A DNA stretch of 32,000 bases from Candidatus Saccharimonadota bacterium (lineage in GTDB: Archaea; Micrarchaeota; Micrarchaeia; Micrarchaeales; Micrarchaeaceae). Below, piece after piece: positions 1 to 32,000 of the stretch. Location of the stretch: the NCBI GenBank assembly GCA_963705375.1, contig OY970071.1, forward strand, positions 960,001-992,000. The letters are read 5' to 3'. Both the position numbers and the translations under genes were made by a program. The number at the start of each line of letters is the position of its first letter. The stretch's first letter is position 1. The notes beneath the pieces are model-generated. The model worked only from the letters and a program-made list of their open reading frames with translations, ran no database searches and was not told the DNA's origin.

Positions 1-2
1 GC

Positions 3-1661
3 CTGCTGCAGGAGCGCATAGCTAGCACATGCAGCAGCGTGTCTCTGGGCAGCGTGAACGGCTGTATGCAAGCTAGTGGTACCAACGAATATTCCTTTGG
101 CTCGTACCTTGTGCAGCCGTATCAGAGCGTCCTTCAAGCTATCGCGAACATGTACCTCAACGGCAACGTAAACGGTCAGCTTGTCGGGAATTTCAGCGGC
201 ACCGGCAGTTACATTTCGATCCCGTCAATCGTGGGCATCAGCGGATCTTCAAACGCCGCAGTTTCTGCATGGATACTCATGAAGAGTCCTAGCAACAACG
301 TGGTGCTCTCTGATGCTTGGACTTCTCCTATGGTGCTGCAGATGTATGTGCACGCAAACGGCTCTCTAGAGGCAGATTTCGGGAGTGGATCCGACTGGAT
401 CATCGAAGCCGAAACATCGTCGAACACACTGTCTCCAGGCAGGTGGTATGACCTCATGGCTACCTGGCAGAGCGGCAACGGAATCTCATTATACGTAAAC
501 GGCCAACTTCAAAGCGCAAACTATCTCGTAGGCAACTCGTTGTCTGAAGGTTCGTTGGGCGTGCCTTCTATGGGGTATATCGGTTATAGCGGCCAGGGAA
601 TCGGCGGATACTTTGATGGCCTGCTTGCCAACATACAGGTCTATTCTTCGCAGCTCAACTCATCTCAGTCTCTGCAGCTCTACTACCGTGGCGTATCTGG
701 GCACCCATTAGGTGATTCAAACCTGATGGGCTGGTGGCCCCTGAACGGCACTCCGAACGACTACTCTGGAAACGACTACAACGGCACATCAACAAGCGTC
801 GCATATTTCGGCCAGACCCCCTCACCGGGGCCGTTCGCAAGCGCACTTCTTGGTGCCTTATACCCGTCAACAAACATGACGATCTTTATAAACAACAGGT
901 ATGCGCCGTCTATGCATCTTCAGTCTGCCGTCTTCAACGGCTTTGGCAGCATAGACGTTCCGAGCAGCTCGAGCCTTAACTTCATCACGCCATTCAGCGT
1001 CGAGGCATGGTTTGAGACGTCAAACTCTGGAGTGTACCAGACAATCATAAACAAAGACCTTACAGGCGAGGGCTATAACCAGAATTATCATCTTAGGGTG
1101 AACAACAACAATGTTCTGTTCGCAAGGTACGGTACTGGAGCGACTTCGTACGACATAACGGGCAACACTGTAGTGACTGATGGAAGGTGGCACCAGGCTA
1201 TCTTTGTGTGGGATGGCCAGTATGTGCATCTGTATCTTGATGGTGCGCAGGACGCAGCCCCTATAAGCGCGCAGAATTTACCGCTCACTAACACGGACCC
1301 GCTTCAAATAGGGACTTGGGCCGGGTATCTTTCTTTTAATGGCTTACTCTCCAATGTGCAGATATACGGCACAGCCCTTACGGCACCGCAGATAATGCAG
1401 CTGTATACTGAAGGTATCGATGGTGCACCTGCAGCCGGTGCAAACATGGTGGGGTGGTGGCCCCTTGACGGCAACGCAAATGACTACACAATCCACGGCA
1501 ATGGCGGTTACTCTTCAGGCGTCACGTACAGCAGCATGAACACGTATGTTCCTGTTTCATTTTCTGCATCGTCATTGGTGAGCGAAGAATCCATACCTCT
1601 GCTTCTCAATGCAAGCGGAACCGACGGCTTGTACAACGTAAGTGTGGTGATATGGCGATGA
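3..1661 (+). CDS. LamG/concanavalin-like lectin-fold repeat surface protein, 5' partial (frame open to the window edge)
   Basis: Frame 3 is open from nt 3, so the GTG at 39 in the ORF track is probably internal. There are two units of about 170 aa with LamG (Laminin_G_3-type) hallmarks: F.G.GSYI, core strands AWILMKS and EAWFETS, LYVNG and LYLDG, and endings ANIQVYSSQLNSSQSLQLYY and SNVQIYGTALTAPQIMQLYTEG. Each unit is followed by a GWWPL(N/D)G..NDY motif (nt 729-788 and 1452-1508). K/R/E/D content is very low and N-x-S/T sequons are frequent. Confidence 0.7.
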   Translation: MLQERIASTCSSVSLGSVNGCMQASGTNEYSFGSYLVQPYQSVLQAIANMYLNGNVNGQLVGNFSGTGSYISIPSIVGISGSSNAAVSAWILMKSPSNNVVLSDAWTSPMVLQMYVHANGSLEADFGSGSDWIIEAETSSNTLSPGRWYDLMATWQSGNGISLYVNGQLQSANYLVGNSLSEGSLGVPSMGYIGYSGQGIGGYFDGLLANIQVYSSQLNSSQSLQLYYRGVSGHPLGDSNLMGWWPLNGTPNDYSGNDYNGTSTSVAYFGQTPSPGPFASALLGALYPSTNMTIFINNRYAPSMHLQSAVFNGFGSIDVPSSSSLNFITPFSVEAWFETSNSGVYQTIINKDLTGEGYNQNYHLRVNNNNVLFARYGTGATSYDITGNTVVTDGRWHQAIFVWDGQYVHLYLDGAQDAAPISAQNLPLTNTDPLQIGTWAGYLSFNGLLSNVQIYGTALTAPQIMQLYTEGIDGAPAAGANMVGWWPLDGNANDYTIHGNGGYSSGVTYSSMNTYVPVSFSASSLVSEESIPLLLNASGTDGLYNVSVVIWR

Positions 1662-1771
1662 AGCTTCCGATGTGTGTTACTGGCGCTCAGAAGGGTATGC
1701 TCTTCACGCTGATCACCATAGTGCTTGTCACTCTCATGCTTGCGATCGTGATGACATATTTATTGCTGAAC
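1652..1771 (+). other. Class III (type IV prepilin-like) signal peptide candidate, or an uncleaved signal anchor
   Basis: A short charged n-region ends in QKG and is followed directly by MLFTLITIVLV.... This resembles the archaeal (K/R)G|hydrophobic site and the bacterial G|FTLIE prepilin site. The h-region of about 24 aa is too long for a typical cleavable Sec signal. Confidence 0.45.
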
Positions 1772-4414
1772 ATAAACTACGACAACCAGGCGTCTCGGGC
1801 CTACGGTGTCCTTGGCACCGACAATTTTGCAAGCTTGATACAAAGCGCAATGCCATCGCTGCTGGCCACCAGCCTGCAGAATGCACAGCATGCGTATCTA
1901 TCCGAAAACCTTGTGGAATGGTTGCCTCTTAGTGGTAACGCCAACGACTACAGCCGCAACGGCAACGACGGCGCTTCGACCAATGTGATATATGTGCCTA
2001 CTGCTACCGCGCAAGTAGCTGGCTTCGACGGTGTGGGTAGTTATATCAACTTAGGCAACACTGCGAAGTTGGATTTCGCCAGTAACAGTTTCACAGTCCT
2101 CGCATGGGTGTATCCAAAAACCCCAATCAATACATACGGTTCTTACGGACAGGTGCTTGCAAGAACCACTAGTGGTGGTGAAGGGTACGAGTTTGGCTGG
2201 TTTGGAAATTCGGATTGTACTGTGCTGTATGCAACCAACGGTCCAACGACTATCTACAGCAGTAACACTATATGCAAAGACGGCTGGGCATCAATCGGGC
2301 TGACGTCTAGTGGCGGCACTTCGACATTTTATATAAATGGTGCACAGGCTGGAAGCGGATTGATAAATTATCCTTCAGAGGCTTCAACAAATACAGGAAT
2401 AGGCAGGGCGCCAGACAGGGCTTCCCCATCTCTAGACTTCAATGGTCTCATCACTGATATTCAGATATACAACACCTCCCTATCAACAAACCAAATGGCA
2501 AGCGTGTATGTGGAAGGTATGCATGGTGCTCCAGTGACTCCTGTAGACTCTGCTATCTTGTTTCCAATAAATGCATCTGCTTCAGAAGCGCTATCCTCTC
2601 TTCTATCAGGCACGCCGTCAATATCTGGCACTTCCCTTAGCGATTACGTGGCTGCTCTGCAGAAGCAATCGCTCGTGCGCAACGTCCATCTCACAATAAC
2701 AAATCAGAGTGTGGACGTGTTCCAAACATCTCCTCTGTGGCTTAACATAACGTATTCTGCGCTTGCCTCCGTCAATTCAACGTTCGGTGCAGTTTTGTAC
2801 CCTCTGCATTCAAGTGTGGCGTTGCCTGTGGCCGTAGCATACTCTAACATAAGCCTCAGCAACACGGGGAGTGCAAGCTTCGACGGCTCGAGCAGCTACA
2901 TCGACATCGGAAATGTGCCGGAGATAAGTTCTTCATCGACATCATGGACCATATCCTTCTGGATGAACTCTGGAAGTGTAGCTAATTACAAGAACGCACT
3001 CGATGCAAATTTCGTTCCTTCAGGAAACAATGCCGGCCCAAGGTTCGAACAGAGTGGCCCATCCATTTTTTCACTGGCAATCGGCACCGATCAGGGCGAC
3101 TCCAATGGTTACACATACACTGATTCGCTTATTCCGAATACGTGGTACTATGTGGTTGCGATACGGTCTGGAGACGCTGTGGTTGGCTATCTCAACGGTG
3201 TCGAAGTGTTCAACAGCCCTAACACCTTGTGGCCTTCCGGCTTCACGAACCTCACAATAGGAAAGGGTGGGGAAGATTTACCTAATAGGTGGTTCATTGG
3301 CAACATCACGAATATCCAGACCTACTGCGCTGTGCTTTCTGCAAGCCAGATTGCGAGCATGTATGCTGCAGGTACAGGCGGCAGCCCGCAGCAATACGGG
3401 CTTGCTGGCTGGTGGCCTCTTGACGGTAACGCCAACGATTATTCAGGCAACGGCAACAATGGCGCGGCTTATGATGTGGCGTATTCCTCATCAAACGTGC
3501 CAGGGCAGTTCCAGCAGATGCTGGCTTTCAACGCGTCGCAGTATTCTGCCTACGAGCGCGTAGACCTCGGAAACGTGCGTTTCTATCATAACGACGTCCC
3601 GCTTTACAGCTGGTGCGAATCCGGGTGCACCAACGCTAGTACGGCAAGCGTGTTATGGGTGAAGCTGCCAGACGGCATTCGGGCCTTCTCCAACACTGTG
3701 ATGACAATGGCATTCTTGCCAAAGTATGTGGGATATGATTCCGGTATCGGTGCGCATGCCGGAGAGGCGCCGCAGCTGAGCCCGATATATGGCCAGTATG
3801 ACAACGGCGCAAGCGTATTCACATTCTATGACAACTTCCAATCCGGTGATAGTAGGTGGACCATCTATCAAGGCGGTGGCTCAAGTTATTCTTTCAATAA
3901 CGGACTGTCTATAACTTCTGGTGTGTCATCGGGCATGGAGCTCTACGCAAGGGCGTCACAGAACCCTTCAATTGTTGAATCTCTGATAACCAATGGACAG
4001 GGAACAAACCTTGGCACTGCAATCGGATGGTCTACTGTTGCACCATCATCCAATGGTGACTTAAATACTGGCTACTGGATAGACAATGGATTTTCTTCAG
4101 CATATTCTGCAAGAATAATAGGCATCGCTGGTGGGTCCCTGACTTATGCCCCTTCGACAGCATACACTTTCCCTGCAACCTGCGTTATAAGCTTCAGTTG
4201 GCCTTCGACAGGTTCGGAAAACTTTCTTCTTAACTTCAGTCCGATAATGGCTGGCACCGATACCAGTATAGGCTGGTCAACTGCGCATGTTTTCATACAG
4301 CAGAGCTCTGGTGATACTGCAACGTCAACATACCAATGGGTCCGTACGCGCGTCAACCCTCCGAACGGCATCATGCCTACCACAAGCTTCGGCGACGTAG
4401 TTCGGCTTGTTTGA
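1652..4414 (+). CDS. Large (920 aa) secreted LamG-repeat protein with a class III (prepilin-like) signal candidate and a DUF2341-like module; candidate giant pilin or adhesin
   Basis: The start overlaps the upstream stop: ATG 1652 gives a 10-nt overlap, and the alternative ATG 1658 gives an ATGA overlap. The N-terminus is MAMKLPMCVTGAQKG followed by the 24-residue hydrophobic stretch MLFTLITIVLVTLMLAIVMTYLLL. Two LamG units lie at about nt 1916-2520 and 2870-3385. The segment NVRFYHNDVPLYSWCESGCTNASTASVLWVKLPDGIRAFSNTVMTMAFLPKY (about nt 3518-3740) resembles DUF2341. The C-terminus looks like a jelly-roll domain. Confidence 0.75.
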   Translation: MAMKLPMCVTGAQKGMLFTLITIVLVTLMLAIVMTYLLLNINYDNQASRAYGVLGTDNFASLIQSAMPSLLATSLQNAQHAYLSENLVEWLPLSGNANDYSRNGNDGASTNVIYVPTATAQVAGFDGVGSYINLGNTAKLDFASNSFTVLAWVYPKTPINTYGSYGQVLARTTSGGEGYEFGWFGNSDCTVLYATNGPTTIYSSNTICKDGWASIGLTSSGGTSTFYINGAQAGSGLINYPSEASTNTGIGRAPDRASPSLDFNGLITDIQIYNTSLSTNQMASVYVEGMHGAPVTPVDSAILFPINASASEALSSLLSGTPSISGTSLSDYVAALQKQSLVRNVHLTITNQSVDVFQTSPLWLNITYSALASVNSTFGAVLYPLHSSVALPVAVAYSNISLSNTGSASFDGSSSYIDIGNVPEISSSSTSWTISFWMNSGSVANYKNALDANFVPSGNNAGPRFEQSGPSIFSLAIGTDQGDSNGYTYTDSLIPNTWYYVVAIRSGDAVVGYLNGVEVFNSPNTLWPSGFTNLTIGKGGEDLPNRWFIGNITNIQTYCAVLSASQIASMYAAGTGGSPQQYGLAGWWPLDGNANDYSGNGNNGAAYDVAYSSSNVPGQFQQMLAFNASQYSAYERVDLGNVRFYHNDVPLYSWCESGCTNASTASVLWVKLPDGIRAFSNTVMTMAFLPKYVGYDSGIGAHAGEAPQLSPIYGQYDNGASVFTFYDNFQSGDSRWTIYQGGGSSYSFNNGLSITSGVSSGMELYARASQNPSIVESLITNGQGTNLGTAIGWSTVAPSSNGDLNTGYWIDNGFSSAYSARIIGIAGGSLTYAPSTAYTFPATCVISFSWPSTGSENFLLNFSPIMAGTDTSIGWSTAHVFIQQSSGDTATSTYQWVRTRVNPPNGIMPTTSFGDVVRLV

Positions 4415-4537
4415 TTCCTGAGAACCTCAAGAAGCTCTCCATCAACTGACGGATTCATCTTAATCTACACGCGTAGAAAGGACTTCCGCGTACGCCACCA
4501 CAATACGCAACACAGTAGTGTTTGCGCTGCTTGCCTC

Positions 4538-5521
4538 TCAGACGAGGCTGGCGAACATACCTGCAATCACATGCTGCATCACTAAGAAGAGCACGATGCC
4601 TATCGCCACAAACACTGGCAGTAATCTTATTCCCTTCACCGCAGATCCTGAAGATATTGCCGACATGATGAGGCTGGCGAAGCCCGTTATGACTACAATC
4701 GCAGCTAGCGAGAATTCATAATAGACGCCCGGGGTTATCTTCGGAGGACTGGGCTTCAGGAAAGACATTCCCATGCTCGGCATGCCTGCCGGGTTTGCCG
4801 TGAGTATGCCTTTCCATATTGTGTCGGTCACTACAATCATCTGGCTGGTGAGCCCGTATAGCAGCGGAGCAGCTATCAGTGCTGCGAACGCTATAAATAT
4901 ACTGTACAGTAACAGCTGGCCGCTTATCTCCTTCTGGACTATCGCATTGTTCCTCATGTTTTTCGCTATCTGCTCTATAAGGTCTGCCATGGCGCCGCCG
5001 TAGCGCAGCGCCTCAATCATCATTCGAACAGCATGATTCATCTCTGCAGAACGGTATCTGTTAGAGAGCTCCCTGAGTGCGCTCTCGAAATTCTCGCCGC
5101 TGTATATGCGCTTGTTCATTTCCTTGATCTCATCGCTCAAGAAGCTGAACTCTGGCCTTGCAGAAAGCAGAAGCGCTCTGTCAAGCGCTATTCCGCTGCG
5201 CAGGTTAGCGGATGCAATTTGAAAGAAATCCGGCAGCATCTCCTCTAGTTGCGTCTTCCGGTTTTCTATTCTATACTCCATGAACATGTAGATCAAGGCG
5301 ATAAAGACCACGCCAGCCGCAAGCCCGGCAACACCTGCTATGGGTGCGTAGAACTTCAGTACGATGACGCCGACAAATATCATTAGGATAAACATGACGA
5401 AGAAGCCAATTATCGCTATTCTCAAGAGGTTCTCGACCGTAATCTTCATGCCTGCAAGGTCGAGCTCGTGCGATACCCTTCTCGCCACGCCCCTGCTTAC
5501 AAGCATCTCGAATCTCACCAT
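4538..5521 (-). CDS. Type IV filament platform protein, single T2SSF domain (FlaJ/PilC/TadC-like), second of two
   Basis: A polytopic membrane protein whose cytoplasmic T2SSF-like block is LPDFFQIASANLRSGIALDRALLLSA...ALRELSNRY...MIEALRYGGAMADLIEQIA. ATG 5521 lies 4 nt after the upstream stop. The ORF-track start at 5551 is a GTG that overlaps the upstream gene. Confidence 0.75.
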   Translation of the reverse strand: MVRFEMLVSRGVARRVSHELDLAGMKITVENLLRIAIIGFFVMFILMIFVGVIVLKFYAPIAGVAGLAAGVVFIALIYMFMEYRIENRKTQLEEMLPDFFQIASANLRSGIALDRALLLSARPEFSFLSDEIKEMNKRIYSGENFESALRELSNRYRSAEMNHAVRMMIEALRYGGAMADLIEQIAKNMRNNAIVQKEISGQLLLYSIFIAFAALIAAPLLYGLTSQMIVVTDTIWKGILTANPAGMPSMGMSFLKPSPPKITPGVYYEFSLAAIVVITGFASLIMSAISSGSAVKGIRLLPVFVAIGIVLFLVMQHVIAGMFASLV

Positions 5522-5525
5522 TCGA

Positions 5526-6590
5526 TCACATCGAATATACGGGTCTTGCACTCGTTATCATGTTCATGAAAATGAACTGCAGGACTATCATGCCAACAAG
5601 TACGAATCCGAGCACAGAGTCCGTGACTGTAAATACTGCTATGAATGTTGTCAATATGGTGATCACTGCTATGCCCATGCTGGGCACTATTATTCCGAAC
5701 AGCATATAGAACATCGCTATCGCATTCAGTTTCTGGCCGTAACTTCTCAGTTCGATTATGCGCTCTTGCGACAGCTGGTCTATCACGCTCTGCAGGGCAT
5801 CGACGACATTGGCGCCTGCCTTTATGCTGGTCGAAGCCTGCAGCATCATGTGCTTGAACGCGGGGCTCTTCGTCTCAGTTGCCGTCTGGTCTATCGCATC
5901 CTCTAGAGGCAGACCTAATTGCACTCTTTCCACTACCTTGGCAAACTCCTTGCTTGCCTCGGCATAGCCCGTGCTGACCGATGCTATCGAATTGTACAGC
6001 GGCATGCCGGACCTGAGCGAGATTATCATGTCCCTGGCTGCAGAGAGAATGTCCCTTTCTATGTTCTTCGATGCCGCTTTGGCGCGCTGTGCAGGATAGT
6101 TTATGAACACGCCAAACGAAACGTAATATGATGCTGCGCCTACGATGATGCCAAGTATCAGGTCCTCCACTATCGGAAGCCCTACGTTATAGAGCAGGAA
6201 TGTGGTCGATATCAGGAGCACGGCCGCAAGCATCGCCGCAGCCATCATCATGCGCTGCAGGAATTCGTGCACGCTCTGGCGCACTCCCTGCTCCCTGAGT
6301 GACTGGTCGAGCCCCTTTTGCTTCGCTTCGATCCTTTCAAGATAAAGGTAAATGGCTCCAGGTTTCTTTATTTGGCGTATTTCCGCCTTCGCCGCATATC
6401 CTTGCTTCTGCTCCGGAGATGCGCCTGCTGCACCTGGCATGCGCCGTTGTTCTGCACGTGGCGGGTCTGGATCGTTCGTTACTGGCCTACTTTGCTTCCC
6501 GAACATTCCGGAAAGCGTCGTGGGCTTCGGGTCAAGCTCTATGCGCTTGCCGTCAACTTCTATCACTCTTTTGTTCTTCTCAAACATCAT
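5526..6590 (-). CDS. Type IV filament platform protein, single T2SSF domain (FlaJ/PilC/TadB-like), first of two, with a cytoplasmic N-terminal extension of about 120 aa
   Basis: The T2SSF-like block is ILSAARDMIISLRSGMPLYNSIASVS...VVERVQLGLPLEDAIDQTA...ASTSIKAGANVVDALQSVIDQL, flanked by TM helices. The preferred start is ATG 6590 (MMFEKNK), which forms an ATGA overlap with the upstream stop. The ORF track extends the ORF to 6638. Confidence 0.75.
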   Translation of the reverse strand: MMFEKNKRVIEVDGKRIELDPKPTTLSGMFGKQSRPVTNDPDPPRAEQRRMPGAAGASPEQKQGYAAKAEIRQIKKPGAIYLYLERIEAKQKGLDQSLREQGVRQSVHEFLQRMMMAAAMLAAVLLISTTFLLYNVGLPIVEDLILGIIVGAASYYVSFGVFINYPAQRAKAASKNIERDILSAARDMIISLRSGMPLYNSIASVSTGYAEASKEFAKVVERVQLGLPLEDAIDQTATETKSPAFKHMMLQASTSIKAGANVVDALQSVIDQLSQERIIELRSYGQKLNAIAMFYMLFGIIVPSMGIAVITILTTFIAVFTVTDSVLGFVLVGMIVLQFIFMNMITSARPVYSM

Positions 6591-7255
6591 TTCACCAGCG
6601 CAAGCGCCTCGGACAGGCGTTGCTCCCTGACAGCCCACATCTCCTTCTCAGAACCCTGAAGCTCGACATTGCCCTTCTGTATCGTTGCCCTTTCCTTTGC
6701 TATTTCTATCTGGAGCCCTCGAAGCTCCTGCGTCAGGACAGTGAGTTGATCATTGTCGAATATTTTACCACGAATTCCCTCTATTATCTTCTCAAGCTCA
6801 GGAACCTGTTCCGCCATCGGAAGGTTGGGCAGCACGAGGTCTTTCATGTTGATGCTCATCTGGGCCTCTTCTATTGTGGGTCCTGTCTTCAATGCGCCCG
6901 TTACTTCGGCTAGCTCCTGTTTCGCCTTTTCTTTGAGCCTCGCATGCTCTGCTTCGTACGCAGGTGGGGCGAATGCCTGTACTTGTGCAGCGGCTGCTGC
7001 AGGCGCAGGCTTCACAGTCGGTGCTGCTGTGGTCTCAAGCCGTATGTGCTCTTTCTCTTCCTTTGGCTTGTGAGGTGTCTCAAATGAGGCTCTTTCTATC
7101 TGATCTAGCAATTGTCCGTAACCCGCGCCGCGCACGTTGACATTTCCGGCAGTAACATTCGTGATGTTTACTGTGCTCTGAGTTTTGACGCTGGCGCCGC
7201 TCTCGATAGACGTGACAAGCTTTACCAGGTCGTCGTACGAAGTCATAATTGCCAC
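6587..7255 (-). CDS. Hypothetical protein (222 aa) between the ATPase and the platform genes
   Basis: The GTG start overlaps the ATPase TAG stop by 1 nt (TAGTG), and its stop overlaps the next start (ATGA). The protein has no TM segment and no P-loop. A central Ala/Pro-rich linker (TAAPTVKPAPAAAAAQVQAFAPPAY) is followed by a predicted helical C-terminal half. I recognise no family. Confidence 0.55.
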   Translation of the reverse strand: MAIMTSYDDLVKLVTSIESGASVKTQSTVNITNVTAGNVNVRGAGYGQLLDQIERASFETPHKPKEEKEHIRLETTAAPTVKPAPAAAAAQVQAFAPPAYEAEHARLKEKAKQELAEVTGALKTGPTIEEAQMSINMKDLVLPNLPMAEQVPELEKIIEGIRGKIFDNDQLTVLTQELRGLQIEIAKERATIQKGNVELQGSEKEMWAVREQRLSEALALVK

Positions 7256-8097
7256 TAGAGTATATCCTTCGTGAACTTTACGTTGTTGTCCACGATGTCC
7301 ATTACCTTTGTTCTGTTCTTGTAATAGTTAGCGACGACAGAACCGGCATCGTCAACATCCAGCACGTTGTTGGCGACCATCCAGTTGAGCACCTTTATCT
7401 TCTCCTGCACGTCCATCGCTATCTCTTTCCTAGATAGGCCTCCATAGAGCATCAGCTGCTCTGCCAGCCTTGTCATGTCTGCTATCTGCGCGAACCTGCC
7501 GTCAGAGAGGTTCCACCTGTACAGCACGTTAACATCTCCTGTCCTCATTACCTCTCCGAATTCGAGCACGCGCCTTATGCCTTTCATCCGGTGTCTGAAC
7601 AACACGATCATAGCTCCCAGAGCATTCATCAGCACTTTTGGCACGTTGATTGGCGGGTTTGTCATCCTTATTATCGTGTCCTGCGCATTATCTGCGTGCA
7701 CAGTGCCGTACACTGCGTGGCCTGTGTGTATCGCTTCGAAGAGTGTTTCTGCATCTTTCTCAGTTCTGATCTCTCCGACCAGCACTATGTCTGGCCTCTG
7801 CCTTAGTGCGTTTATCATGAGGTTGTAGAGCGTGACCTCTCCCTTTCCTTCAGGGTTTGGCAGCCTGGATACCATCGGTATCCATTGCAGGAAGCTCGGC
7901 AGGGTGAGCTCTCGAGTGCCTTCTATCGATATTATTCTCCTGTTAGCCGGGAAGAATATGCTCGTTGCGTTGAGGAAACTCGTCTTACCGCTAGCTGTGC
8001 CTCCCGAGAACAGCATGCTCATCTCGTTCTGTATGCACAGCCATGTAAGTGCCGCAATCTCGGGGCTCACCGTGCCGTTCTTTATGAGCATCGTCAT
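7255..8097 (-). CDS. FlaI/PilB/GspE-family secretion ATPase, C-terminal (ATPase domain) fragment
   Basis: Walker A is GGTASGKTSFLNA and Walker B/Asp box is RPDIVLVGEIRTEKDAETLFEAIHTGHAVYGTVHA. Upstream of its ATG the same frame still encodes the conserved ...SQSGNTITIRKFSKNPWT. Confidence 0.85.
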   Translation of the reverse strand: MTMLIKNGTVSPEIAALTWLCIQNEMSMLFSGGTASGKTSFLNATSIFFPANRRIISIEGTRELTLPSFLQWIPMVSRLPNPEGKGEVTLYNLMINALRQRPDIVLVGEIRTEKDAETLFEAIHTGHAVYGTVHADNAQDTIIRMTNPPINVPKVLMNALGAMIVLFRHRMKGIRRVLEFGEVMRTGDVNVLYRWNLSDGRFAQIADMTRLAEQLMLYGGLSRKEIAMDVQEKIKVLNWMVANNVLDVDDAGSVVANYYKNRTKVMDIVDNNVKFTKDIL

Positions 8098-8752
8098 GGT
8101 CCACGGGTTCTTCGAAAACTTTCTTATAGTGATCGTGTTGCCTGATTGCGATATCGGGATATAGCGTAGCGTTGACTCTGGAACCGTCAGACAGTTCCGC
8201 GTCCATGAGAGGTTCGAGGTTGGATATCTGTTTGCCTATCCTTCTTCCTATCTGCTCTGCCTGGTCGTATATCATCTCCTCGCTCGCCGGTTTTATGTTT
8301 GTCTTGCACCAGCCGCGCACCTTGTGGAAGACCCAAATATCGCTCTTGGATCCGTTCACTGCTATCTCTTCAAGGTTCTCGTCTGCTAATGGCGCTTCGA
8401 GCTCTCCCAGGCCGAGCATTATGTTGAGTATGTATGCCACAAGGAGCTTCTTCACTACGGGACGCGTGCCGGGCACGTACTTGTCTATGAGCAGTTCGCT
8501 GGCGTCTATGTACCTCTTGTTCAACTCTTCCGCATACTCCTTGTCCTCTATTCGCGTCGGGTCTATCGCCACCATCAATGCAAGCTCACGCCTGAACGAC
8601 ATAAGCAGCAGTTTCGTCGCGTCTCCTATGCCTTGGAAGCCCACATGGTACGCTAGTGCGAAGTCGGAAGTCTTCAGTATCTGCACGGTGACCTGCATCC
8701 CGTGCGCATCCAGCTGGTATGATTCAAGCACTTCTTGTTCTTCTTTCGCCAA
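7991..8752 (-). CDS. FlaI/PilB/GspE-family secretion ATPase, N-terminal domain fragment ending in an out-of-frame tail
   Basis: Conserved stretches are ...LGELEAPLADENLEEIAVNG...DIWVFH...EPLMDAELSDGSRVNATLYPDI, after which the sequence becomes nonsense (AIRQHDHYKKVF...). The TTG start lies 4 nt after the upstream stop and is preceded by GTGATC (SD-like). The fragment overlaps ORF 7255-8097 in another frame. Confidence 0.8.
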   Translation of the reverse strand: MAKEEQEVLESYQLDAHGMQVTVQILKTSDFALAYHVGFQGIGDATKLLLMSFRRELALMVAIDPTRIEDKEYAEELNKRYIDASELLIDKYVPGTRPVVKKLLVAYILNIMLGLGELEAPLADENLEEIAVNGSKSDIWVFHKVRGWCKTNIKPASEEMIYDQAEQIGRRIGKQISNLEPLMDAELSDGSRVNATLYPDIAIRQHDHYKKVFEEPVDHDDAHKERHGEPRDCGTYMAVHTERDEHAVLGRHS

Positions 8753-8756
8753 GCGA

Positions 8757-10049
8757 TCACTTGCCCTCGTTGAACTTGTTCTCTGTATCTTTTATAGATT
8801 TCTTTATGCCAGACAACTTCTCATCAGTCTTATCTACCTTCTTCTCGATCTCCGTAGTTATGTTCATGCGCTGTTCAAGCGTGACTGTCATGGCCGCGAA
8901 CGCCTGCAGGCTCTTCTGCAGATCTGAAACGCTGGCCCTCGACTCTTCTATCTCTTTGTTTATGGTTTCGATGCTCTTCTTTGCATCGTGCAGAGTGCTG
9001 TCCACTTTAACCACATCACCGAATGCCATCTTGAGGTCGTTGAGCTTGCCGAGCACATCTTTGGAGTTCTGATCCAGCAGCTCGGTGCTGGCTTTCATGC
9101 TCTCCTCTATCTTCTCGTACCTGTCCGTGAACTGGACCCTTGCGGTGGTGAGCGTCCTTTTGGTGCGGTCCATGTCCTTCTTGAAGTTCTTTAGCTGCTC
9201 CACGAGTGCCTTTGACTCGCTGCCCTGGTTTTTGAGCTTGCTGAGGTTACGTGATACGCTGGCGCTGCTCGTGCCCATCTGAGCATCGACTTCTTTCTTC
9301 TTTGCAGCGATCTGCTTCTTGAGATCCGCAACTTGATCGTCGACATCATCCAACAAAGAATCGAACACCCTGTCTTTGGCGCTGGACAGGCTGACGAGTG
9401 CATCATATGCCTCTTTTGCATTCTTTATTGCGTCCTGTGCCTCCCCAGTGCCCGTTGTAACTGCGGTCACGCCCTTGCCTTGCCCTGCGGTCACTTCCGT
9501 GTTGCTGAGCGTTTCGATCTTCGAGTACAACTCATCGATATTCTTGTTGACGCTCTGGTATGAGTCCTCTGCGGTTCTCTTTATGCGTTCAACTGTTCTG
9601 CCCTGCTCTATTATGCTGTCATAAAGCGTGTTTATCTGCATCAGCATCTGCTGAACAGCAGGCATCCTTTGCTGGTATATGCGCTCAAGGCTTGACACTT
9701 CTGTGCTCAGGTTGCTTATCTCTGCGGCAAACTTTTCTATTTCTGTGCGCTGAGTCACGACCTTCTCTTCGACAAGCCCTCTCTTGACCTCCATCCTCGA
9801 TTCTACGAGCTTTACCTGTTCTGCGCTAACGGTGATAGGTGCGACATTCATCCTTCCGACTTCATAGCTTATCCTGACCATGCCTCCCGTTTCCAGCACT
9901 TTGGACCAGTTCTCCACTATCGACGGCGCAATTCCCAGTGTCGATGCTATCTCGCTAACATCCATCTTTCCCTTGGCTTGGAGCAGCTCCATCAAAGCGT
10001 CTATAGTAGTTCTGGCTTCGGCGCTTTCCTCGGGTTTTTCTGCCGGCAT
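8757..10049 (-). CDS. Winged-helix (wHTH-like) N-terminal domain plus a long coiled-coil protein; first gene of the filament operon
   Basis: The N-terminal segment IDALMELLQAKGKMDVSEIASTLGIAPSIVENWSKVLETGGMVRISYEVGRMNVAP has a helix-turn-helix plus wing pattern. The remaining roughly 350 aa are heptad-like and K/E/Q/S-rich, with no TM segment. A TATA candidate lies upstream. Confidence 0.65.
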   Translation of the reverse strand: MPAEKPEESAEARTTIDALMELLQAKGKMDVSEIASTLGIAPSIVENWSKVLETGGMVRISYEVGRMNVAPITVSAEQVKLVESRMEVKRGLVEEKVVTQRTEIEKFAAEISNLSTEVSSLERIYQQRMPAVQQMLMQINTLYDSIIEQGRTVERIKRTAEDSYQSVNKNIDELYSKIETLSNTEVTAGQGKGVTAVTTGTGEAQDAIKNAKEAYDALVSLSSAKDRVFDSLLDDVDDQVADLKKQIAAKKKEVDAQMGTSSASVSRNLSKLKNQGSESKALVEQLKNFKKDMDRTKRTLTTARVQFTDRYEKIEESMKASTELLDQNSKDVLGKLNDLKMAFGDVVKVDSTLHDAKKSIETINKEIEESRASVSDLQKSLQAFAAMTVTLEQRMNITTEIEKKVDKTDEKLSGIKKSIKDTENKFNEGK

Positions 10050-10139: not shown

Positions 10140-11282
10140 TCAGCCGCGTTCTCCTTTTGCGACCTTCCTGGCAAGCGCATCAAAGCCCCTAAAGAACTTC
10201 TCCCAGCTGTAAGCTTGCTCGACTCTGCGCCTGCCCTGCCTTCCCATGTCTTCCGCGACGCTCCTATGCTCTGCCAGGAACAGCATGCGTTTTGCCATCT
10301 CGCTTGGCGAGTTAATGAGGAATCCTGTCTTGCCGTCCAGGACCGTTTCCTTCGGACCGCCCTCGTTGACCGAGATGACGGGCTTGAAGCTGGCCATCGC
10401 CTCAAGAGGCACGATGCCGAAGTCCTCGTTGATAGGTGCGAACAGCAATGCCGTGCAATTCGCATAGAGCTCTTTGACCTGTGCGTCGCTAGGGTTCAGG
10501 ACGAACTCCACGTTCTTCGCATGCATGCTTTTCAACGAGCCGTAGTACTCTTCAGAGCTGCGATATCTCTTGGAGAGCGTGCCTGACAGTATGAGCTTGT
10601 AGCTCTTGTCCTTTGACTGGACTAGGAACTGCCTGAACGCGTCGATCACATACTCCTGTCTTTTCATCCTGTCTATTCTTGAATGGTAGATGAAGTACTT
10701 GCTATCGCCATCATTCCTGAAGCCTTTACAATCAACACCCGGGCTTACGACTGTGCCTTTTCTGTCCAGGTATTTTATTATTCTTATATTCGTGTTTTCG
10801 CTGTTTGTCGCTATGCCTTCTATTTTCTTAACAATGCCGCGCTCTATGCGCTTGTAGAAGAGCGACAGTGCATCATACGCAATTCTCTCGTGCAAAGGCC
10901 TCTTTCTTACCGTGCCGATTGTCGGATCGAATATCTCCCTTGGTGGCGTGTGCACATACCACAGCACACGCTCGTTCTTGTTCCTCGACCACTCGCTCGG
11001 AGACATGTGCGCGTTTATGACATCGTAGTCTTCTTTTATCTTGAGTTTGAGGAAGTTCGTGCCATAGTGCACGCCGTTGGCTATGACCTGCGGCATCACT
11101 CCATTGAACACGCCTCTTTTTGCGAAGACCTCCACATCCAACGCCTTGAACCCTTCGAACGTTGCATTGCTTTCATAACCAAGGGTGTATATTTTCGCAT
11201 CGTAGTGCTGCGCTATTTTCAGTATGACGCGCTCAGCACCACCTCGCTCGTTCAGATTATGCTGGAGTATGAGCAGCTTCAT
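10140..11282 (-). CDS. Glycosyltransferase, GT4 (GT-B fold) family
   Basis: The N-terminus MKLLILQHNLNERGGAERV is typical. The C-terminal E-x7-E motif is EDFGIVPLEAM and is followed by GGPKETVLDGKTGFL. Confidence 0.85.
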   Translation of the reverse strand: MKLLILQHNLNERGGAERVILKIAQHYDAKIYTLGYESNATFEGFKALDVEVFAKRGVFNGVMPQVIANGVHYGTNFLKLKIKEDYDVINAHMSPSEWSRNKNERVLWYVHTPPREIFDPTIGTVRKRPLHERIAYDALSLFYKRIERGIVKKIEGIATNSENTNIRIIKYLDRKGTVVSPGVDCKGFRNDGDSKYFIYHSRIDRMKRQEYVIDAFRQFLVQSKDKSYKLILSGTLSKRYRSSEEYYGSLKSMHAKNVEFVLNPSDAQVKELYANCTALLFAPINEDFGIVPLEAMASFKPVISVNEGGPKETVLDGKTGFLINSPSEMAKRMLFLAEHRSVAEDMGRQGRRRVEQAYSWEKFFRGFDALARKVAKGERG

Positions 11283-11291
11283 GCACGCACC

Positions 11292-12815
11292 TCAATCATG
11301 GGCACCATCAACACCAAAATACCTGAACACCAGAGGTGCGATTCCACAGACATTCATCTCTTTCTTGCTATACTTGCTCAGAATCCCGTCATTGCCGAGC
11401 ATGCCAAATATTCCGTGCATAGTGTGGTCTCCGCTCTTCGCAAGCTCTGGCTTCATTATGTCGCTGTGCAGAGAGTAATTGAACACGTCTATGGTGTATC
11501 CTGGCTTTGCCTCTACAAGAAGGTCTGGCGTTATGATGCTGTTCAGCCCGCGGTAGTATGCGCTGCCATCGACCACCCTGCTTATGAGGCTATCGCCTTC
11601 TGGCGACCGTATCTGTTTCAGCGATTTCTCCACTTGTGCTTTCAGCCTGGCCCTCTCTCCTATGCTTACATTCGGGTTTGAGAAACGCCTGTCGTTTATG
11701 AATATGGTGCCGACAGGATTGTTGGATACCGATGCAAAAGCCCTTGTGTTGTCCATGTCGAAGTCGAAATCGTGTATCCGTGTGTAGCCCGCCCCAGAGG
11801 CACCAGAGAGTACCATGCCTGCGGTGCTCGCGATCACACTCTTCACCTTTCCAGGCATCTTGTTGTACACGCGCCTGAGCCCGCTCTTGAAGAGCATCTC
11901 TCTTATCGTATACTTTATGCTGCCTGTTCCGTGCTCACTGCTCTTCATCGATTCTATTATCTGGTCTTTCAGCTTCGCATATCCGTTGTTGATGAGCCAT
12001 GCGTTGATGAGGAACTTGCCCTTTATCTGCTGCGATCCGTGGTCTGAGAAGAGCACCACCGTGCATTCGTCTTCAGAACTTGCGACATACGATTCCAGCC
12101 ATTCCAGGAATTCCGACACCTTTTTGTAGAGCGGCGTGAGCAGAGTCTCCCAGTTCTTTACGGGAAGATAGTGCTGCATGCGGTCCGTTTCAGAGAAGCA
12201 CACCAGAACAAAGTCGTAATCGTTGCGTTCCAACATGCGTCTTGTGAACCGTGCCCTGCCTTCGATGCTCTTTGCATACATCTCTGAACCTTTTTCAACG
12301 GACAATGTGCCCGCTTTCAAAACTCCCTCTATTTCTGGTTCTCCTGAAAAGTCCGCTTTCTTCGCCTCTGCCTTTAATGTGCTTGAGCTGAACTTTGACT
12401 TAAGGGGCCAACCAGTCATCATGTCAACGTTCTTCTTCGTGCTCAGGTTGGTTATCATGACAGGGTTGACTACAAGGCTTTTCAGCCCTTTGTCTGAGAG
12501 CACATCCCATAATGGCGGGTGCTTGTCGGTATCAAGGAAGAGCAGGTCTTCTTTCTCGTAGTTACTGCCGATCGACAGGAAGTCTATCACTCCATGCTCC
12601 CTCGGCTCTAGGCCTGTATATATGCTTGGCCAGGCCGGCCCACTGAGCGGAGGCAAAGTGGACTCTATCTCCTTCAGGAAGCCTTTCTCAAAGAATGCAT
12701 TGAACCCTTTCATGCCGTATTTTCTTGACAGATGCTTCACTATCCACAGAGGTGCAGAATCCACACCGACCATGTAGAGTTTCTTTCGTGTCAATGAATC
12801 ATTTCTACTTATCAT
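11292..12815 (-). CDS. Alkaline-phosphatase superfamily protein (type I phosphodiesterase/nucleotide pyrophosphatase-like)
   Basis: Motifs are KKLYMVGVDSAP (metal-binding Asp), PPLSGPAWPSIYTGLEPREHGV (nucleophile region) and VLFSDHGS. It lies 9 nt upstream of the GT4 gene on the same strand. Confidence 0.7.
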   Translation of the reverse strand: MISRNDSLTRKKLYMVGVDSAPLWIVKHLSRKYGMKGFNAFFEKGFLKEIESTLPPLSGPAWPSIYTGLEPREHGVIDFLSIGSNYEKEDLLFLDTDKHPPLWDVLSDKGLKSLVVNPVMITNLSTKKNVDMMTGWPLKSKFSSSTLKAEAKKADFSGEPEIEGVLKAGTLSVEKGSEMYAKSIEGRARFTRRMLERNDYDFVLVCFSETDRMQHYLPVKNWETLLTPLYKKVSEFLEWLESYVASSEDECTVVLFSDHGSQQIKGKFLINAWLINNGYAKLKDQIIESMKSSEHGTGSIKYTIREMLFKSGLRRVYNKMPGKVKSVIASTAGMVLSGASGAGYTRIHDFDFDMDNTRAFASVSNNPVGTIFINDRRFSNPNVSIGERARLKAQVEKSLKQIRSPEGDSLISRVVDGSAYYRGLNSIITPDLLVEAKPGYTIDVFNYSLHSDIMKPELAKSGDHTMHGIFGMLGNDGILSKYSKKEMNVCGIAPLVFRYFGVDGAHD

Positions 12816-17013: not shown

Positions 17014-18180
17014 TTACAGGTTTGGCCTAGGCTTTATCTTGGCAAAGAGCCCGTAGAACAATGAAGACTTATTGCTATCGAACTTGCCAGAAATCAATTC
17101 TGATGGTGTTGGATATTCGATTGCCATGCTGGCGCGTACGCTCTTCTCCAGGTCCTCCGGTGTTACCTTTTCGCTTCTCTTCTTGAATATCAGCAGGTCT
17201 TCTGGTTTGAGCGTTGTGGTGCGCGTTTCAGGAACTGTGCTTCTTTGCGCGAAGCTGCGGGCTTTTTCAGCTTCTGCCGGCCGGTTCTGCTCGACGACTT
17301 GTTCCAGCATGCATGCCTGCTCTGGTAGTGCGCACTCTTTTATTCCGAGGGTGCCTGCCATGGCCATTCCCTGACATGGCTCTTGTGACAGGACGTCTGG
17401 AACGTCTATCTGGCTCTGCGAGCATGCCGGCCCTTCCTGTTCGAGCTGTCGGACCACCATCTGCTGCAGCGTTGTCTCTCCGTCCAGTATGCTGTTTTCT
17501 ACCATCTCGTTCGCAATCTTCATGCTGCGTTTTGTGGTGTATGAGACGCTTGCTGGCGCAGAAACGCAGTAGCTTGCGGGATCCGGCAACGGGAGCGCCA
17601 TGTCGTGGTGCAGCTTGTGCATCACGCTAAGCTGATAACTCCAGCGCGACGCGTCGTCCATTTCGTCAGTTTTTGTCTGATCATGCTTCTGCTTGGATCT
17701 GATGTGTCTCGCGTAGTTTATGCCGTTTGCTATCATGTTCGCGCCCTCCCTCGAGAATCCCTTTATCTCTCCCTCGCAGAGGTTGTCGAATACGCAAGAG
17801 TCAGGTGTTCCATTCTGCCTTATCTGCACAGAAGAGAACATCAGGCTGTGCACGACCCTGAACGACGCGATGCTGTCGTGGTCTATGAACGCTATGTCCG
17901 ATTTCATGCGCAGATACCTGCGGTTGATTATTATCGTCCTGTGGTCCGTGACCAGTACGATTGTAGGGTTCAGCAATGCTCCGTGGAGTCTGCGCTCCAT
18001 GGCGAACGCAAGCACGTTCTCTTCAGGCAATATCATAGAGGATATTGTGCTAGACTCGTTCTTTGACAGCTTCGGAGTCTTGCGCACAGCCATGTGGCGT
18101 GTATGGTACACTCTGCTCTCTATGTCAAAAGAGCTTTGCGGTCTTATTTGCAGTGCCGATTCTATATTTTGGTCTTTCAT
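17014..18180 (-). CDS. Hypothetical protein with an N-terminal bacterial-PH-like domain
   Basis: The segment LPEENVLAFAMERRLHGALLNPTIVLVTDHRTIIINRRYLRMKSDIAFIDHDSIASFRVVHSLMFSSVQIR resembles bPH/YdbT-type PH domains. The remainder is acidic, Gln-rich and low in complexity. ATG 18180 is preceded by GAGGTG (SD-like). The ORF-track start at 18186 is a GTG. Confidence 0.5.
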   Translation of the reverse strand: MKDQNIESALQIRPQSSFDIESRVYHTRHMAVRKTPKLSKNESSTISSMILPEENVLAFAMERRLHGALLNPTIVLVTDHRTIIINRRYLRMKSDIAFIDHDSIASFRVVHSLMFSSVQIRQNGTPDSCVFDNLCEGEIKGFSREGANMIANGINYARHIRSKQKHDQTKTDEMDDASRWSYQLSVMHKLHHDMALPLPDPASYCVSAPASVSYTTKRSMKIANEMVENSILDGETTLQQMVVRQLEQEGPACSQSQIDVPDVLSQEPCQGMAMAGTLGIKECALPEQACMLEQVVEQNRPAEAEKARSFAQRSTVPETRTTTLKPEDLLIFKKRSEKVTPEDLEKSVRASMAIEYPTPSELISGKFDSNKSSLFYGLFAKIKPRPNL

Positions 18181-18427
18181 CCCCACACCTCAAATGCCTG
18201 CATCTAGCGATTCTATGCCCCCGCTGCTATCGCTGAAGTGCAGTCATTGGTTGTTGTTCGAAAGTGAGTCCTGAAGATATATATAGATTTTCACTACCCT
18301 CGTCATTCGTAGATATCCGTAGTTAAAGCGGCTCCATGCAAAGATGCGGCGGGTATAACTGAGTTTAAATTCAAGATGTCTGCGTGGAATATTTTGCTAC
18401 GGCGCTACCTAAATTGGACGACCTACA

Positions 18428-22592: not shown

Positions 22593-22681
22593 AGCCCCAG
22601 GAGGGAATTGAACCCACAACCTACTGCTTTATGGTCTGTTTCCGTTACCATGCAGTCGCTCTGCCACTGAGCTACTGGGGC
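22593..22681 (-). tRNA. tRNA-Thr (anticodon GGU) with a 17-nt intron at the canonical 37/38 position
   Basis: The minus strand reads GCCCCAG-TA-GCTC-AGTGGCA-GAGC-G-ACTGC-[AT GGT A | ACGGAAACAGACCATAA | A]-GCAGT-AGGTT-GTGGG-TTCAATT-CCCTC-CTGGGGC-T. The acceptor, D and anticodon stems all pair. The T-stem has one U-U mismatch. No CCA is encoded. Confidence 0.85.
22629..22645 (-). other. tRNA intron (bulge-helix-bulge-like)
   Basis: The intron segment ACCAT pairs with the anticodon-loop segment ATGGT. This leaves an AAA bulge before the 3' exon and an A-rich bulge at the 5' splice site. The exact cut sites are ambiguous by 1-2 nt because of repeated A residues. Confidence 0.7.
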
Positions 22682-24477: not shown

Positions 24478-24570
24478 AGTACCACATACACTAAACGACA
24501 ACACAAAAGAAATAACTTTCTTATCTAGGTGCCAATGTCCTTTGCCATATGGAAATGCCAAAGGATAAAT

Positions 24571-31335: not shown

Positions 31336-32000
31336 TCTCGTTGCCGACGTCCTCTCCCGCGACCACTTCGGGCATCACTAACTTGTACACGCCTGCAACC
31401 GTGAGCTTTGGTATGCTGGCTTCGCTGCTAACCTTCGCTATGACTCCTATGTGCGGGTTCGCCGTCTTTGCGGTTATGGCTATCATCGCGTTCTGCATGT
31501 CGTTATCGCTGCACGCGACCACGAAGCTCGCCCTGTCTATGCCTACGCTCTCATAGGCGTCTGCATACCTTATGTCTCCCAGAAGCGCGAGCTCCTTCTT
31601 GTCGTGAAGCCTGGCAAGCACATTCCTGTCTGAAGTTATGGTCACTGCATTCATGCCTTTCTTCTGCAGCTCATCCATGAGTACTCTCGCGAAGCCATTG
31701 AACGGAACGACTATCACATGGCCTTTGAGGTTGCGTATTTTTGAGAGTGCTATCTTCTCGCTCACGCGCACGTTGCTCATGAAACTATAGAACCACGCGG
31801 CAAACACGACAGTCAAAAGCGCAAACACAAAGACATTGAGTATGTCTGCGACAACGAGCAGGCTATTGTTGAGCATATCCTGCGGTATCAACAGGTAATT
31901 GACCTGCAGCGCTTCGAGCACACTCTGCGCGACAGCTATCTTGAAAGGAACGTGTGCAATCAGCATTAGGCAGTTGGCCGCTACGAAAAGCACCAGTGCG
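31316..32000 (-). CDS. Membrane protein with a C-terminal RCK/TrkA-N-like domain, 5' partial (frame open to the window edge)
   Basis: The C-terminal Rossmann-like block is GHVIVVPFNGFARVLMDELQKKGMNAVTITSD...LLGDIRYADAYESVGIDRASFVVACSDNDMQNAMIAITAK...VIAKV, preceded by TM helices. No TVGYG selectivity filter is visible in the part inside the window. Its 3' end overlaps the giant gene's 3' end by 20 nt (convergent). Confidence 0.55.
   Translation of the reverse strand, partial: ALVLFVAANCLMLIAHVPFKIAVAQSVLEALQVNYLLIPQDMLNNSLLVVADILNVFVFALLTVVFAAWFYSFMSNVRVSEKIALSKIRNLKGHVIVVPFNGFARVLMDELQKKGMNAVTITSDRNVLARLHDKKELALLGDIRYADAYESVGIDRASFVVACSDNDMQNAMIAITAKTANPHIGVIAKVSSEASIPKLTVAGVYKLVMPEVVAGEDVGNEIIKRFS

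Follow-up and report, generated by a model that had tools for sequence, protein, structure and literature searches.

The window, that is, the whole 32-kb stretch of DNA analysed here, carries in its first 10 kb the genes of a type IV filament machine next to genes for large proteins with LamG repeats, and it is this locus, its conservation and its probable role that we describe. In the map of open reading frames (ORFs), a string of minus-strand genes ran from 10049 to 4538 and was faced by two overlapping plus-strand genes (Table 1). In the direction of transcription, the minus-strand genes encode a protein with a putative winged helix-turn-helix (wHTH) domain and a coiled coil (wHTH-CC), a secretion ATPase, an orphan protein, and two platform proteins, TadC1 and TadC2; the plus-strand genes are called C and D. 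An earlier note, made from the sequence alone, had described the minus-strand genes as an operon with tight junctions and the LamG genes as overlapping each other and ending 123 nt from the operon end, and both descriptions held when the sequence was read base by base. The wHTH-CC and ATPase genes are separated by 4 nt. The ATPase and orphan genes overlap by 1 nt if the orphan starts at a GTG codon, or lie 8 nt apart if it starts at the likelier ATG at 7246. The orphan and TadC1 genes share an ATGA overlap, and a gap of 4 nt separates TadC1 from TadC2 (ATG at 5521). Genes C and D overlap by 10 nt, at 1652..1661, and the 123-nt convergent spacer (4415..4537) lies between the ends of D and TadC2. 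Upstream of the first gene, a TATA-like TTTATTAAA may serve as the operon promoter, to judge by its sequence and position; a scan for sigma-70 promoters and terminators used bacterial models and was hence uninformative for an archaeon.

Table 1. Features of the filament locus, with positions in the 32-kb window
Feature	Position	Strand	Remarks
Gene C, LamG-repeat pilin-like protein	3..1661	+	Laminin_G_3 9e-39; 5' end lost at window start
Gene D, 920-aa pilin-like LamG protein	1652..4414	+	Laminin_G_3 9.7e-33; class-III-like N-terminus
Convergent intergenic spacer, 123 nt	4415..4537	.	Read from sequence
TadC2 platform protein, 327 aa	4538..5521	-	T2SSF 8.2e-16; ATG at 5521
TadC1 platform protein, 354 aa	5526..6590	-	T2SSF 1.2e-17; ATG at 6590
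Orphan, lineage-specific accessory protein, 219 aa	6587..7246	-	No Pfam, NCBIfam or PDB match
PilB/FlaI/CpaF-family secretion ATPase with +1 frameshift	7255..8752	-	Parts 7991..8752 (N-terminal) and 7255..8097 (C-terminal)
CCC run with one extra base (frameshift site), adjoining GATATC	8156..8158	-	Comparison with six relatives
wHTH-CC, first operon gene, 430 aa; HTH-like domain and long coiled coil	8757..10049	-	
Candidate archaeal promoter, TATA-like TTTATTAAA	10078..10086	-	28 nt upstream of wHTH-CC ATG

The source organism is a Micrarchaeon, a member of the DPANN archaea: the closest matches of the ATPase were assigned to Micrarchaeia, Micrarchaeaceae or Micrarchaeota wherever they were named. 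A genome scan with one genome per GTDB species yielded 556 ATPase-related stretches, and the best 80 of these were used for the locus comparisons (related loci are referred to by L numbers). All of the best 80 came from Micrarchaeota or were evident mis-bins, and among them was the cultured 'Ca. Micrarchaeum' A_DKE, represented by its complete genome. These two results bore out the suggestion that the DNA belongs to a small-genome symbiotic archaeon. For synteny mapping, hidden Markov models were built from the window and four relatives and run on all fetched loci (~80).

The order wHTH-CC, ATPase, orphan, TadC1, TadC2 was kept in every locus of sufficient length (~80 Micrarchaeota loci). A convergent LamG operon was found in 55 of the 62 loci with at least 3 kb of downstream sequence, and the gap between the two operons was 500 nt or less in 44 of the 62. 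The LamG genes are thus co-conserved with the machine operon, one of the points on which the earlier note had made its proposal depend. In the relatives, the LamG operon consists of four genes, A to D, and the window holds D in full but C only in its 3' part; judging from the relatives, A and B would sit just left of window position 1. Gene A encodes a protein of ~900 aa with two to three LamG domains in the relatives. Gene B, which encodes a protein of ~180 aa without a Pfam match, was present in 41 of the 50 loci with at least 6.5 kb. The orthologues of C are about 600-750 aa long (typically ~720 aa) with LamG and often a PQQ beta-propeller, and those of D measure 650-1500 aa with LamG and sometimes DUF2341. 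That no small pilin had been seen turned out to be an effect of the window edge, gene B lying just left of it in the relatives.

The flank on the opposite side of the machine operon varies: most relatives have an M50-like peptidase gene there, and the window's own clade has a GT4 gene and one of the phosphodiesterase family; because of this variation, the conserved unit was set at nine genes. The M50-like product is a membrane protein of ~231 aa (site-2 protease family, weak Pfam match), encoded directly upstream of wHTH-CC in L004 (7969-8664), L008 (7963-8661) and most of L011-L084. In the window's own clade, the genes upstream of the operon are the GT4 glycosyltransferase gene (10140..11282) and the Phosphodiest-family gene (11292..12815).

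The genes of the unit have changed at different rates. In comparison with locus L010, the ATPase was 88% identical, TadC2 78%, wHTH-CC 68%, the orphan 54%, and C and D 39-40%. The LamG proteins thus diverge much faster than the machine, a pattern that would be expected of recognition proteins. The overlap between C and D was 10 nt long in the window, L001, L004, L006 and L008 alike, though the proteins are only 21-44% identical, and its constant length suggests translational coupling of the two genes.

The ATPase had been read as a single ORF, which it is not in the sequence as given: its N-terminal part (7991..8752) and its C-terminal part (7255..8097) are read in different frames. The C-terminal part (7255..8097) contains the T2SSE domain (Pfam, E 3e-29), with the Walker A motif GGTASGKTS as well as DIVLVGEIR and HTGH (Walker B, Asp/His boxes). 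Dropping one C from the CCC run at ~8156-8158 gave a protein of 498 aa that reads DGSRVNATLYPISQSGNTITIRKF across the join, in agreement with a block (DGSRVNATLYPISQxGNTITIRKF in the relatives) that was invariant or nearly so in eleven relatives. Programmed frameshifting was ruled out because all relatives are in frame, the six related loci compared each being shorter by one base close to the CCC run (within a few positions). The repaired ATPase was 87-89% identical to intact Micrarchaeota ATPases and 60-89% identical to those of the best 80 genome loci. In total, the search found more than 5,700 relatives; in the best 120 clusters, they were 65-89% identical and ~500 aa long.

A public contig of 1,209,602 bp has the frameshifted fragment of 235 aa among its recorded proteins, which shows that the same shift is present there, and an exact protein look-up found no intact copy of exactly this ATPase on record. 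An independent 4.4-kb Logan contig (L090) was 100% identical to window positions 3410-7837 and ended short of the frameshift site. In two metagenome-assembled genomes (MAGs) with long contigs, the TadC genes were split into three to seven ORF pieces (L076:13568-14723 and L085:12134-14323), which suggests that indel errors are common in assemblies of this kind. On this evidence, the frameshift in the ATPase gene is most likely a single-base assembly error, and we regard this as considerably more probable than a real pseudogene.

Each platform protein contains a single T2SSF domain, with scores of 64.5 and 58.5 bits against a Pfam cut-off of 25.2 (ORFs 5526..6638, 1.2e-17, and 4538..5551, 8.2e-16). 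The Pfam families anticipated for the machine and for the LamG proteins (T2SSE, one T2SSF in each platform protein, and Laminin_G_3 in both plus-strand proteins) were therefore all found above threshold. The start of TadC2, MVRFEML, agrees with its relatives, to which TadC2 and TadC1 showed median identities of 54% and 50%, respectively.

The other two genes of the machine operon encode proteins without a family name. The orphan had been described as a 222-aa protein of no recognised family, and this was confirmed: no match was found in Pfam (for the protein and 78 orthologues), in NCBIfam, or among PDB sequences even at E 10. An exhaustive profile search of 1.84 billion proteins retrieved 307 representative clusters, nearly all of them full-length at ~190-330 aa; by this count, from a cluster library that carries no lineage names, the orphan belongs to a small family. 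It was present between the ATPase and TadC1 genes in all loci. Its identity across the phylum was 20-30%, as against 62-72% for the ATPase, around a conserved core LVLPxLSxxDQISELExIxEGL. In an AlphaFold2 (AF2) model from a 12-sequence alignment, residues 130-219 formed a three-helix bundle with a predicted local distance difference test score (pLDDT) of ~90, preceded by a disordered Pro/Ala/Gln-rich stretch. The bundle is generic, and Foldseek returned no match better than E ~1.

For wHTH-CC, of the two elements in the earlier description, the coiled coil was seen in many generic coiled-coil family matches, and the wHTH domain is putative, with HTH_5/MarR matches below threshold (E 3e-4 to 9e-4) and a model of low confidence behind it. 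This single-sequence AF2 model (mean pLDDT 61) placed helices at residues 10-24, 31-38 and 42-54, followed by 76-190, 194-342 and 349-429. A search with 74 members of the family gave no family name, only sub-threshold HTH and generic coiled-coil matches, and the PDB matches were spurious coiled-coil ones. A block of ~70 aa at the N-terminus is conserved (TxID..G..L..E.W..LE..Y..G.M), and the gene was found upstream of the ATPase gene in all loci. Two loci (L006:8489-8704 and L077:8371-8604) contained an extra stand-alone copy (71-77 aa) of this N-terminal HTH-like domain just upstream of the full-length gene. Neither wHTH-CC nor the orphan has membrane segments or signals, and both appear specific to Micrarchaeota. 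Because they are constantly linked and tightly coupled to the machine genes, they may serve the machine in the cytoplasm, either as a scaffold or as regulators.

Both plus-strand proteins of the window contain two Laminin_G_3 stretches. In D, the two LamG modules are followed by a C-terminal DUF2341-like region; the DUF2341 match that had been looked for in the 920-aa protein was located there, although it stayed under the cut-off (E 0.0035; 18.2 bits against 23.4). Among 45 D orthologues, DUF2341 was significant in 5 (best 2.7e-18) and Laminin_G_3 in 43. The N-terminus of D in the window reads MAMKLPMCVTGAQKG↓MLFTLITIVLVTLMLAIVMTYL, also given as GAQKG↓MLFTLITIVLVTLML (the arrow marks the predicted cleavage site). 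No second class-III-like ORF was found in the 32 kb, so that D stands as the window's only candidate for such a signal, as had been claimed for it.

In all four families, the N-terminus consists of a short basic leader ending in Gly, Ala or Ser, followed by ~22 hydrophobic residues, and its form is family-specific. The A proteins begin ..[KR]x[AS]↓QIAxEF(I/V)(V/I)YSF (4 of 4 complete copies, from four relatives), with Gln at +1 and Glu at +5. The B proteins begin [KR][AGLM]↓QFWSFD(V/A/I)IFA (41 of 45), with Gln at +1 and Asp at +6. The corresponding motif is [KR][GA]↓F(I/V)FT(L/V)DA(V/I)F in C (44 of 65 ORFs, the remainder being cut) and [KR][GA]↓(I/V/L/Q)L(L/M/F)T(L/I) in D (52 orthologous ORFs). 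An acidic residue thus occupies +5 or +6 in families A-C, and none does in D. Gln at +1 and Glu at +5 have been reported for the Epd pilins of M. maripaludis (PMC3875500), a pattern that C and D do not fit. A search of the A-D orthologues for the Pfam families Class_IIIsignal and DUF361 gave no match, and only one A protein had a weak match, to DUF7266. Taken by their residues, the N-termini of A-D resemble the class III (prepilin) pattern, and cleavage is predicted. The LamG proteins had been regarded as cargo that the machine would display or secrete; because each family keeps its own conserved prepilin-like N-terminus, they look like pilin subunits instead.

A distant Micrarchaeon (L088, ATPase 61% identical) had no LamG operon downstream of TadC2. 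Right after TadC2, this locus encodes a 190-aa protein (5029-5601, plus strand) with a canonical archaeal pilin N-terminus, KIQS↓AMEYLITYGWAILII, which is a candidate for the type of major pilin used by the machine.

The type of filament system was assessed from the ATPase, the platform genes and the neighbourhood. The best PDB matches of the ATPase were 2oap, 4ii7 (FlaI structure, 1.4e-56) and CpaF. Against the FlaI equivalog model NF058587, it scored 253.5 bits with a cut-off of 550 (residues 111-480 aligned, 4e-75), and against the TadA model 159.7 bits with a cut-off of 373. No archaellum genes (FlaH, FlaF/G, FlaC/D/E, archaellin) were found in the window or within 10 kb in the relatives, and no A24 prepilin peptidase (PibD/FlaK/EppA) was found in the window or, for four relatives, in the gene calls up to 10 kb away; for the 32 kb, this agrees with what the earlier note had said of the peptidase and the archaellum accessory genes. 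The ATPase shares its superfamily with that of the archaellum, as the matches to the FlaI model and the 4ii7 structure show, but its score is below half the equivalog cut-off, and the platform consists of two single-domain proteins. With the arl genes not found within 10 kb in the relatives either, an archaellum was ruled out, and the description of the locus as a non-archaellar type IV filament machine stood. A bacterial Tad/Flp pilus was also rejected: only the ATPase and the TadB/TadC-like parts are shared, no Flp, TadZ or secretin families were found among the window proteins, and the TadA score is below the cut-off.

Among archaeal systems, the locus most resembles clade 1, defined by Makarova, Koonin and Albers in 2016 for Methanococci, Methanothermobacteria and Thermococci and including the Epd pilus (PMC4858521). 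Clade 1 loci feature the ATPase, two TadC genes and several class III minor pilins, with small major pilins encoded elsewhere, and two large DUF2341 proteins were proposed as PilY-like tip adhesins (PMC4858521). A 2026 preprint describes a 'system 1' in methanogens, Thermococcales and DPANN, with two platform genes as its mark (10.64898/2026.04.22.720090). As in clade 1, the ATPase gene of our locus is adjoined by two distinct TadC-like platform genes. Further resemblances are the several putative class III minor pilins, including large adhesin-like proteins and DUF2341 in some D orthologues, and the Gln +1 and Glu +5 of gene A in the relatives; a major pilin encoded in trans, as we propose here, would be a further likeness. 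Unlike clade 1, the window has no EppA peptidase, FleN/MinD ATPase or small (~70 aa) pilins, LamG modules dominate, and the -1 residue in A and B is Ala or Ser and not Gly.

A closer precedent exists in the same phylum. Golyshina et al. (2017) reported a type IV pili locus (MIA14_0170-0177) in Mia14 ('Ca. Mancarchaeum acidiphilum'), with LamG genes 'linked to type IV pili loci' and a single prepilin peptidase elsewhere in the genome (PMC5498576). Its components include the ATPase (0170), TadC (0172 and 0173) and a secreted component (0176) (PMC5498576, Supplementary Table 2). The authors assigned the locus to the Methanococci/Methanothermobacteria/Thermococci group and found its key components to be common to many Micrarchaea (PMC5498576). 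The gene order of our unit (ATPase, orphan, TadC, TadC, D, C, B, A) matches that locus. A difference is that Mia14 has its LamG locus on a genomic island. The system had been proposed as uncharacterised, but the Mia14 report already describes this gene order and the connection with LamG genes. On gene content and the Mia14 precedent, the locus is likely to fall under the archaeal clade/system 1 (Epd-like) type IV filaments.

Gene content, gene order, conservation and N-terminal motifs were read from the loci themselves, and with these in hand, we consider it probable that the locus is the Micrarchaeota form of a clade/system 1 (Epd-like) type IV filament locus in which A-D make up a lectin-bearing minor-pilin tip complex. 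From them we infer that the pilins are processed and built into a filament, that A-D sit at its tip and bind glycans, and that the filament takes part in host contact. In this mechanism, a hexameric ATPase of the PilB/FlaI type would work with the two-protein TadC-like platform. An A24 peptidase (signal peptidase III) encoded elsewhere in the genome would remove the leaders, the ATPase and TadC1/TadC2 would extract the processed pilins from the membrane and polymerise them, and a major pilin encoded in trans would supply the filament body. The co-transcribed HTH-like/coiled-coil protein and the ~220-aa three-helix-bundle protein would probably scaffold or regulate the machine. A-D would act as a minor-pilin priming and tip complex that starts assembly and remains at the tip, and A, C and D would there present the LamG/ConA-like lectin modules on their prepilin N-termini to bind glycans of the host or another surface. 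The most likely role of A-D would be that of a glycan-binding tip complex for attachment to a host or surface.

Two bacterial systems offer analogies. The nearest precedent with experimental support is PilC of S. sanguinis, in which a ConA-like lectin module is joined to a pilin; the protein binds glycans, and models place it in a tip complex of minor pilins (Shahin et al. 2023, PMC9934059). As in PilC, a class-III-like N-terminus is fused to lectin modules here (two Laminin_G_3 stretches in D of the window), and as in PilA-PilB-PilC, the lectin-bearing proteins belong to a small set of minor pilins. PilC differs in being bacterial, in having a single lectin module as against two or three in each of three proteins of up to 1500 aa, and in showing no detectable sequence relationship; its tip position and glycan binding have been shown by experiment, and for A-D both are predicted.

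The other, an analogy and not a demonstrated homology, is with the minor pilins GspH-I-J-K and PilV-W-X-FimU with PilY1. GspH-I-J-K is the pseudopilus tip set of the type II secretion system (T2SS), and GspK is bulky, without an acidic residue at +5. Similarly, A-D are four co-transcribed pilin-like genes, of which the second is the smallest and the last is bulky without an acidic +5 residue, and the DUF2341 domain is shared with PilY-type adhesins (PMC4858521). The sizes are far larger here, and there is no outer membrane or secretin. It is conceivable, though we hold it only tentatively and think it rather doubtful, that A-B-C-D is the archaeal counterpart of the bacterial H-I-J-K tip complex, expanded to LamG 'mega-pilins' as a host-recognition device, and that the HTH/coiled-coil and three-helix-bundle proteins are new machine parts. 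If so, the divergence of C and D would set which Thermoplasmatales or Sulfolobales host a Micrarchaeon attaches to.

Several points weigh against a clade/system 1 filament with A-D at its tip. Neither a prepilin peptidase nor a major pilin lies in the window. Two platform genes are also carried by some DPANN subsystem 4A loci, so that this feature is not exclusive (10.64898/2026.04.22.720090), and the Mia14 locus is taken to be orthologous from its gene order and source annotations rather than its sequence. The LamG operon is not adjacent in 7 of the 62 loci, and a FlaFind-style expression fits 42 of 52 D proteins, 1 of 4 A proteins and none of the B or C proteins, which leaves room for plain membrane anchors. 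These last two points also speak for an alternative in which the LamG proteins are ordinary surface or S-layer adhesins with an N-terminal anchor, and the machine builds its filament from small pilins encoded elsewhere and never handles them. The canonical small pilin that L088 has beside TadC2 instead of a LamG operon would suit this alternative, as would the third giant LamG protein of the window (24529..31335), which, unlike a pilin, combines an ordinary-looking signal peptide with an anchor at the C-terminus. However, a basic residue and Gly or Ala followed by a hydrophobic helix of ~22 aa is the signature of class III and not of a generic anchor, three of the four families keep the acidic residue at +5/+6 in dozens of species, and the convergent arrangement persists in 55 of the 62 loci while the surrounding genes vary; we therefore regard anchored adhesins as unlikely.

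The frameshift also counts against a working filament. The only public assembly that spans the site shows the same shift, and the machine may be dead in this strain; the locus would then be a recently inactivated pseudogene cluster, with a real frameshift and a filament that is no longer made. The shift destroys the invariant TITIRKF block, the 1.2-Mb public contig encodes the 235-aa out-of-frame fragment, and an intact copy is not on record. The defect is nevertheless a single extra base in a CCC run of a single assembly, and the other genes of the 10-kb locus are intact. The fragmented TadC genes of the long-contig MAGs L076 and L085 are consistent with indel errors, and the independent contig L090 is identical to the window over their overlap, though it ends before the site. 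On balance, inactivation seems improbable, yet it deserves to be kept in mind. Alternatively, the machine might be a pseudopilus of the type II secretion kind, which would push LamG or other proteins through the S-layer instead of building a long adhesive pilus. The four minor-pilin-like proteins, with no major pilin encoded in cis, resemble the GspH-I-J-K tip set, the earlier 'display or secrete' proposal is compatible with this reading, and a retraction ATPase is neither present nor needed. Secretion of the T2SS type by an archaeal type IV filament machine has not been shown, however, thin filaments that 'could represent archaeal pili' occur on the cultured Micrarchaeon ARM-1 (PMC11329633), and the clade 1 systems studied make pili (PMC4858521, PMC3875500). 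We consider such a pseudopilus very unlikely.

How DPANN archaea recognise and hold their hosts is an open question, and to our knowledge no surface filament of Micrarchaeota has been assigned to genes so far. In ARM-1, thin pilus-like filaments were noted only in passing (PMC11329633). Pilins and LamG are not mentioned in the ARM-1 genome paper (PMC8784108), nor pili and LamG in the A_DKE paper (PMC8975820). A near-universal Micrarchaeota locus tied to fast-diverging, prepilin-type proteins with lectin domains would be a concrete candidate for an attachment apparatus, made up of nine genes. The pilus locus with its LamG link (Mia14) and system 1 filaments in DPANN are already known. We found no description of the four prepilin-type families, the two accessory families or their rates of change; in the Mia14 paper, neither the four LamG families with prepilin-type N-termini nor the HTH/coiled-coil gene and the family of the orphan are described (PMC5498576). 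The present analysis adds detail and not a new kind of system, namely how the nine-gene unit is built and a specific hypothesis of a tip complex.

Elsewhere in the window, the third LamG protein (24529..31335, plus strand) is 2268 aa long, and its two Laminin_G_3 modules are accompanied by a hydrophobic, Sec-like signal at the N-terminus and a membrane anchor at the C-terminus; its gene is adjoined by a TrkA_N gene (31316..31993). In the distant relatives L004 and L008, genes for a giant protein of 1600-2000 aa, a membrane protein of 322-362 aa and three TrkA_N proteins lie ~5 kb upstream of the pilus operon, and a giant surface protein may be loosely linked to the pilus neighbourhood. A 390-aa ORF without a Pfam match (17014..18186, minus strand) is located between a citramalate/isopropylmalate synthase-like gene and an aspartyl-tRNA synthetase gene. 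Finally, an 89-nt tRNA on the minus strand (22593..22681; Rfam tRNA, 56.5 bits), whose anticodon was not named by ARAGORN, is probably an intron-containing archaeal tRNA.

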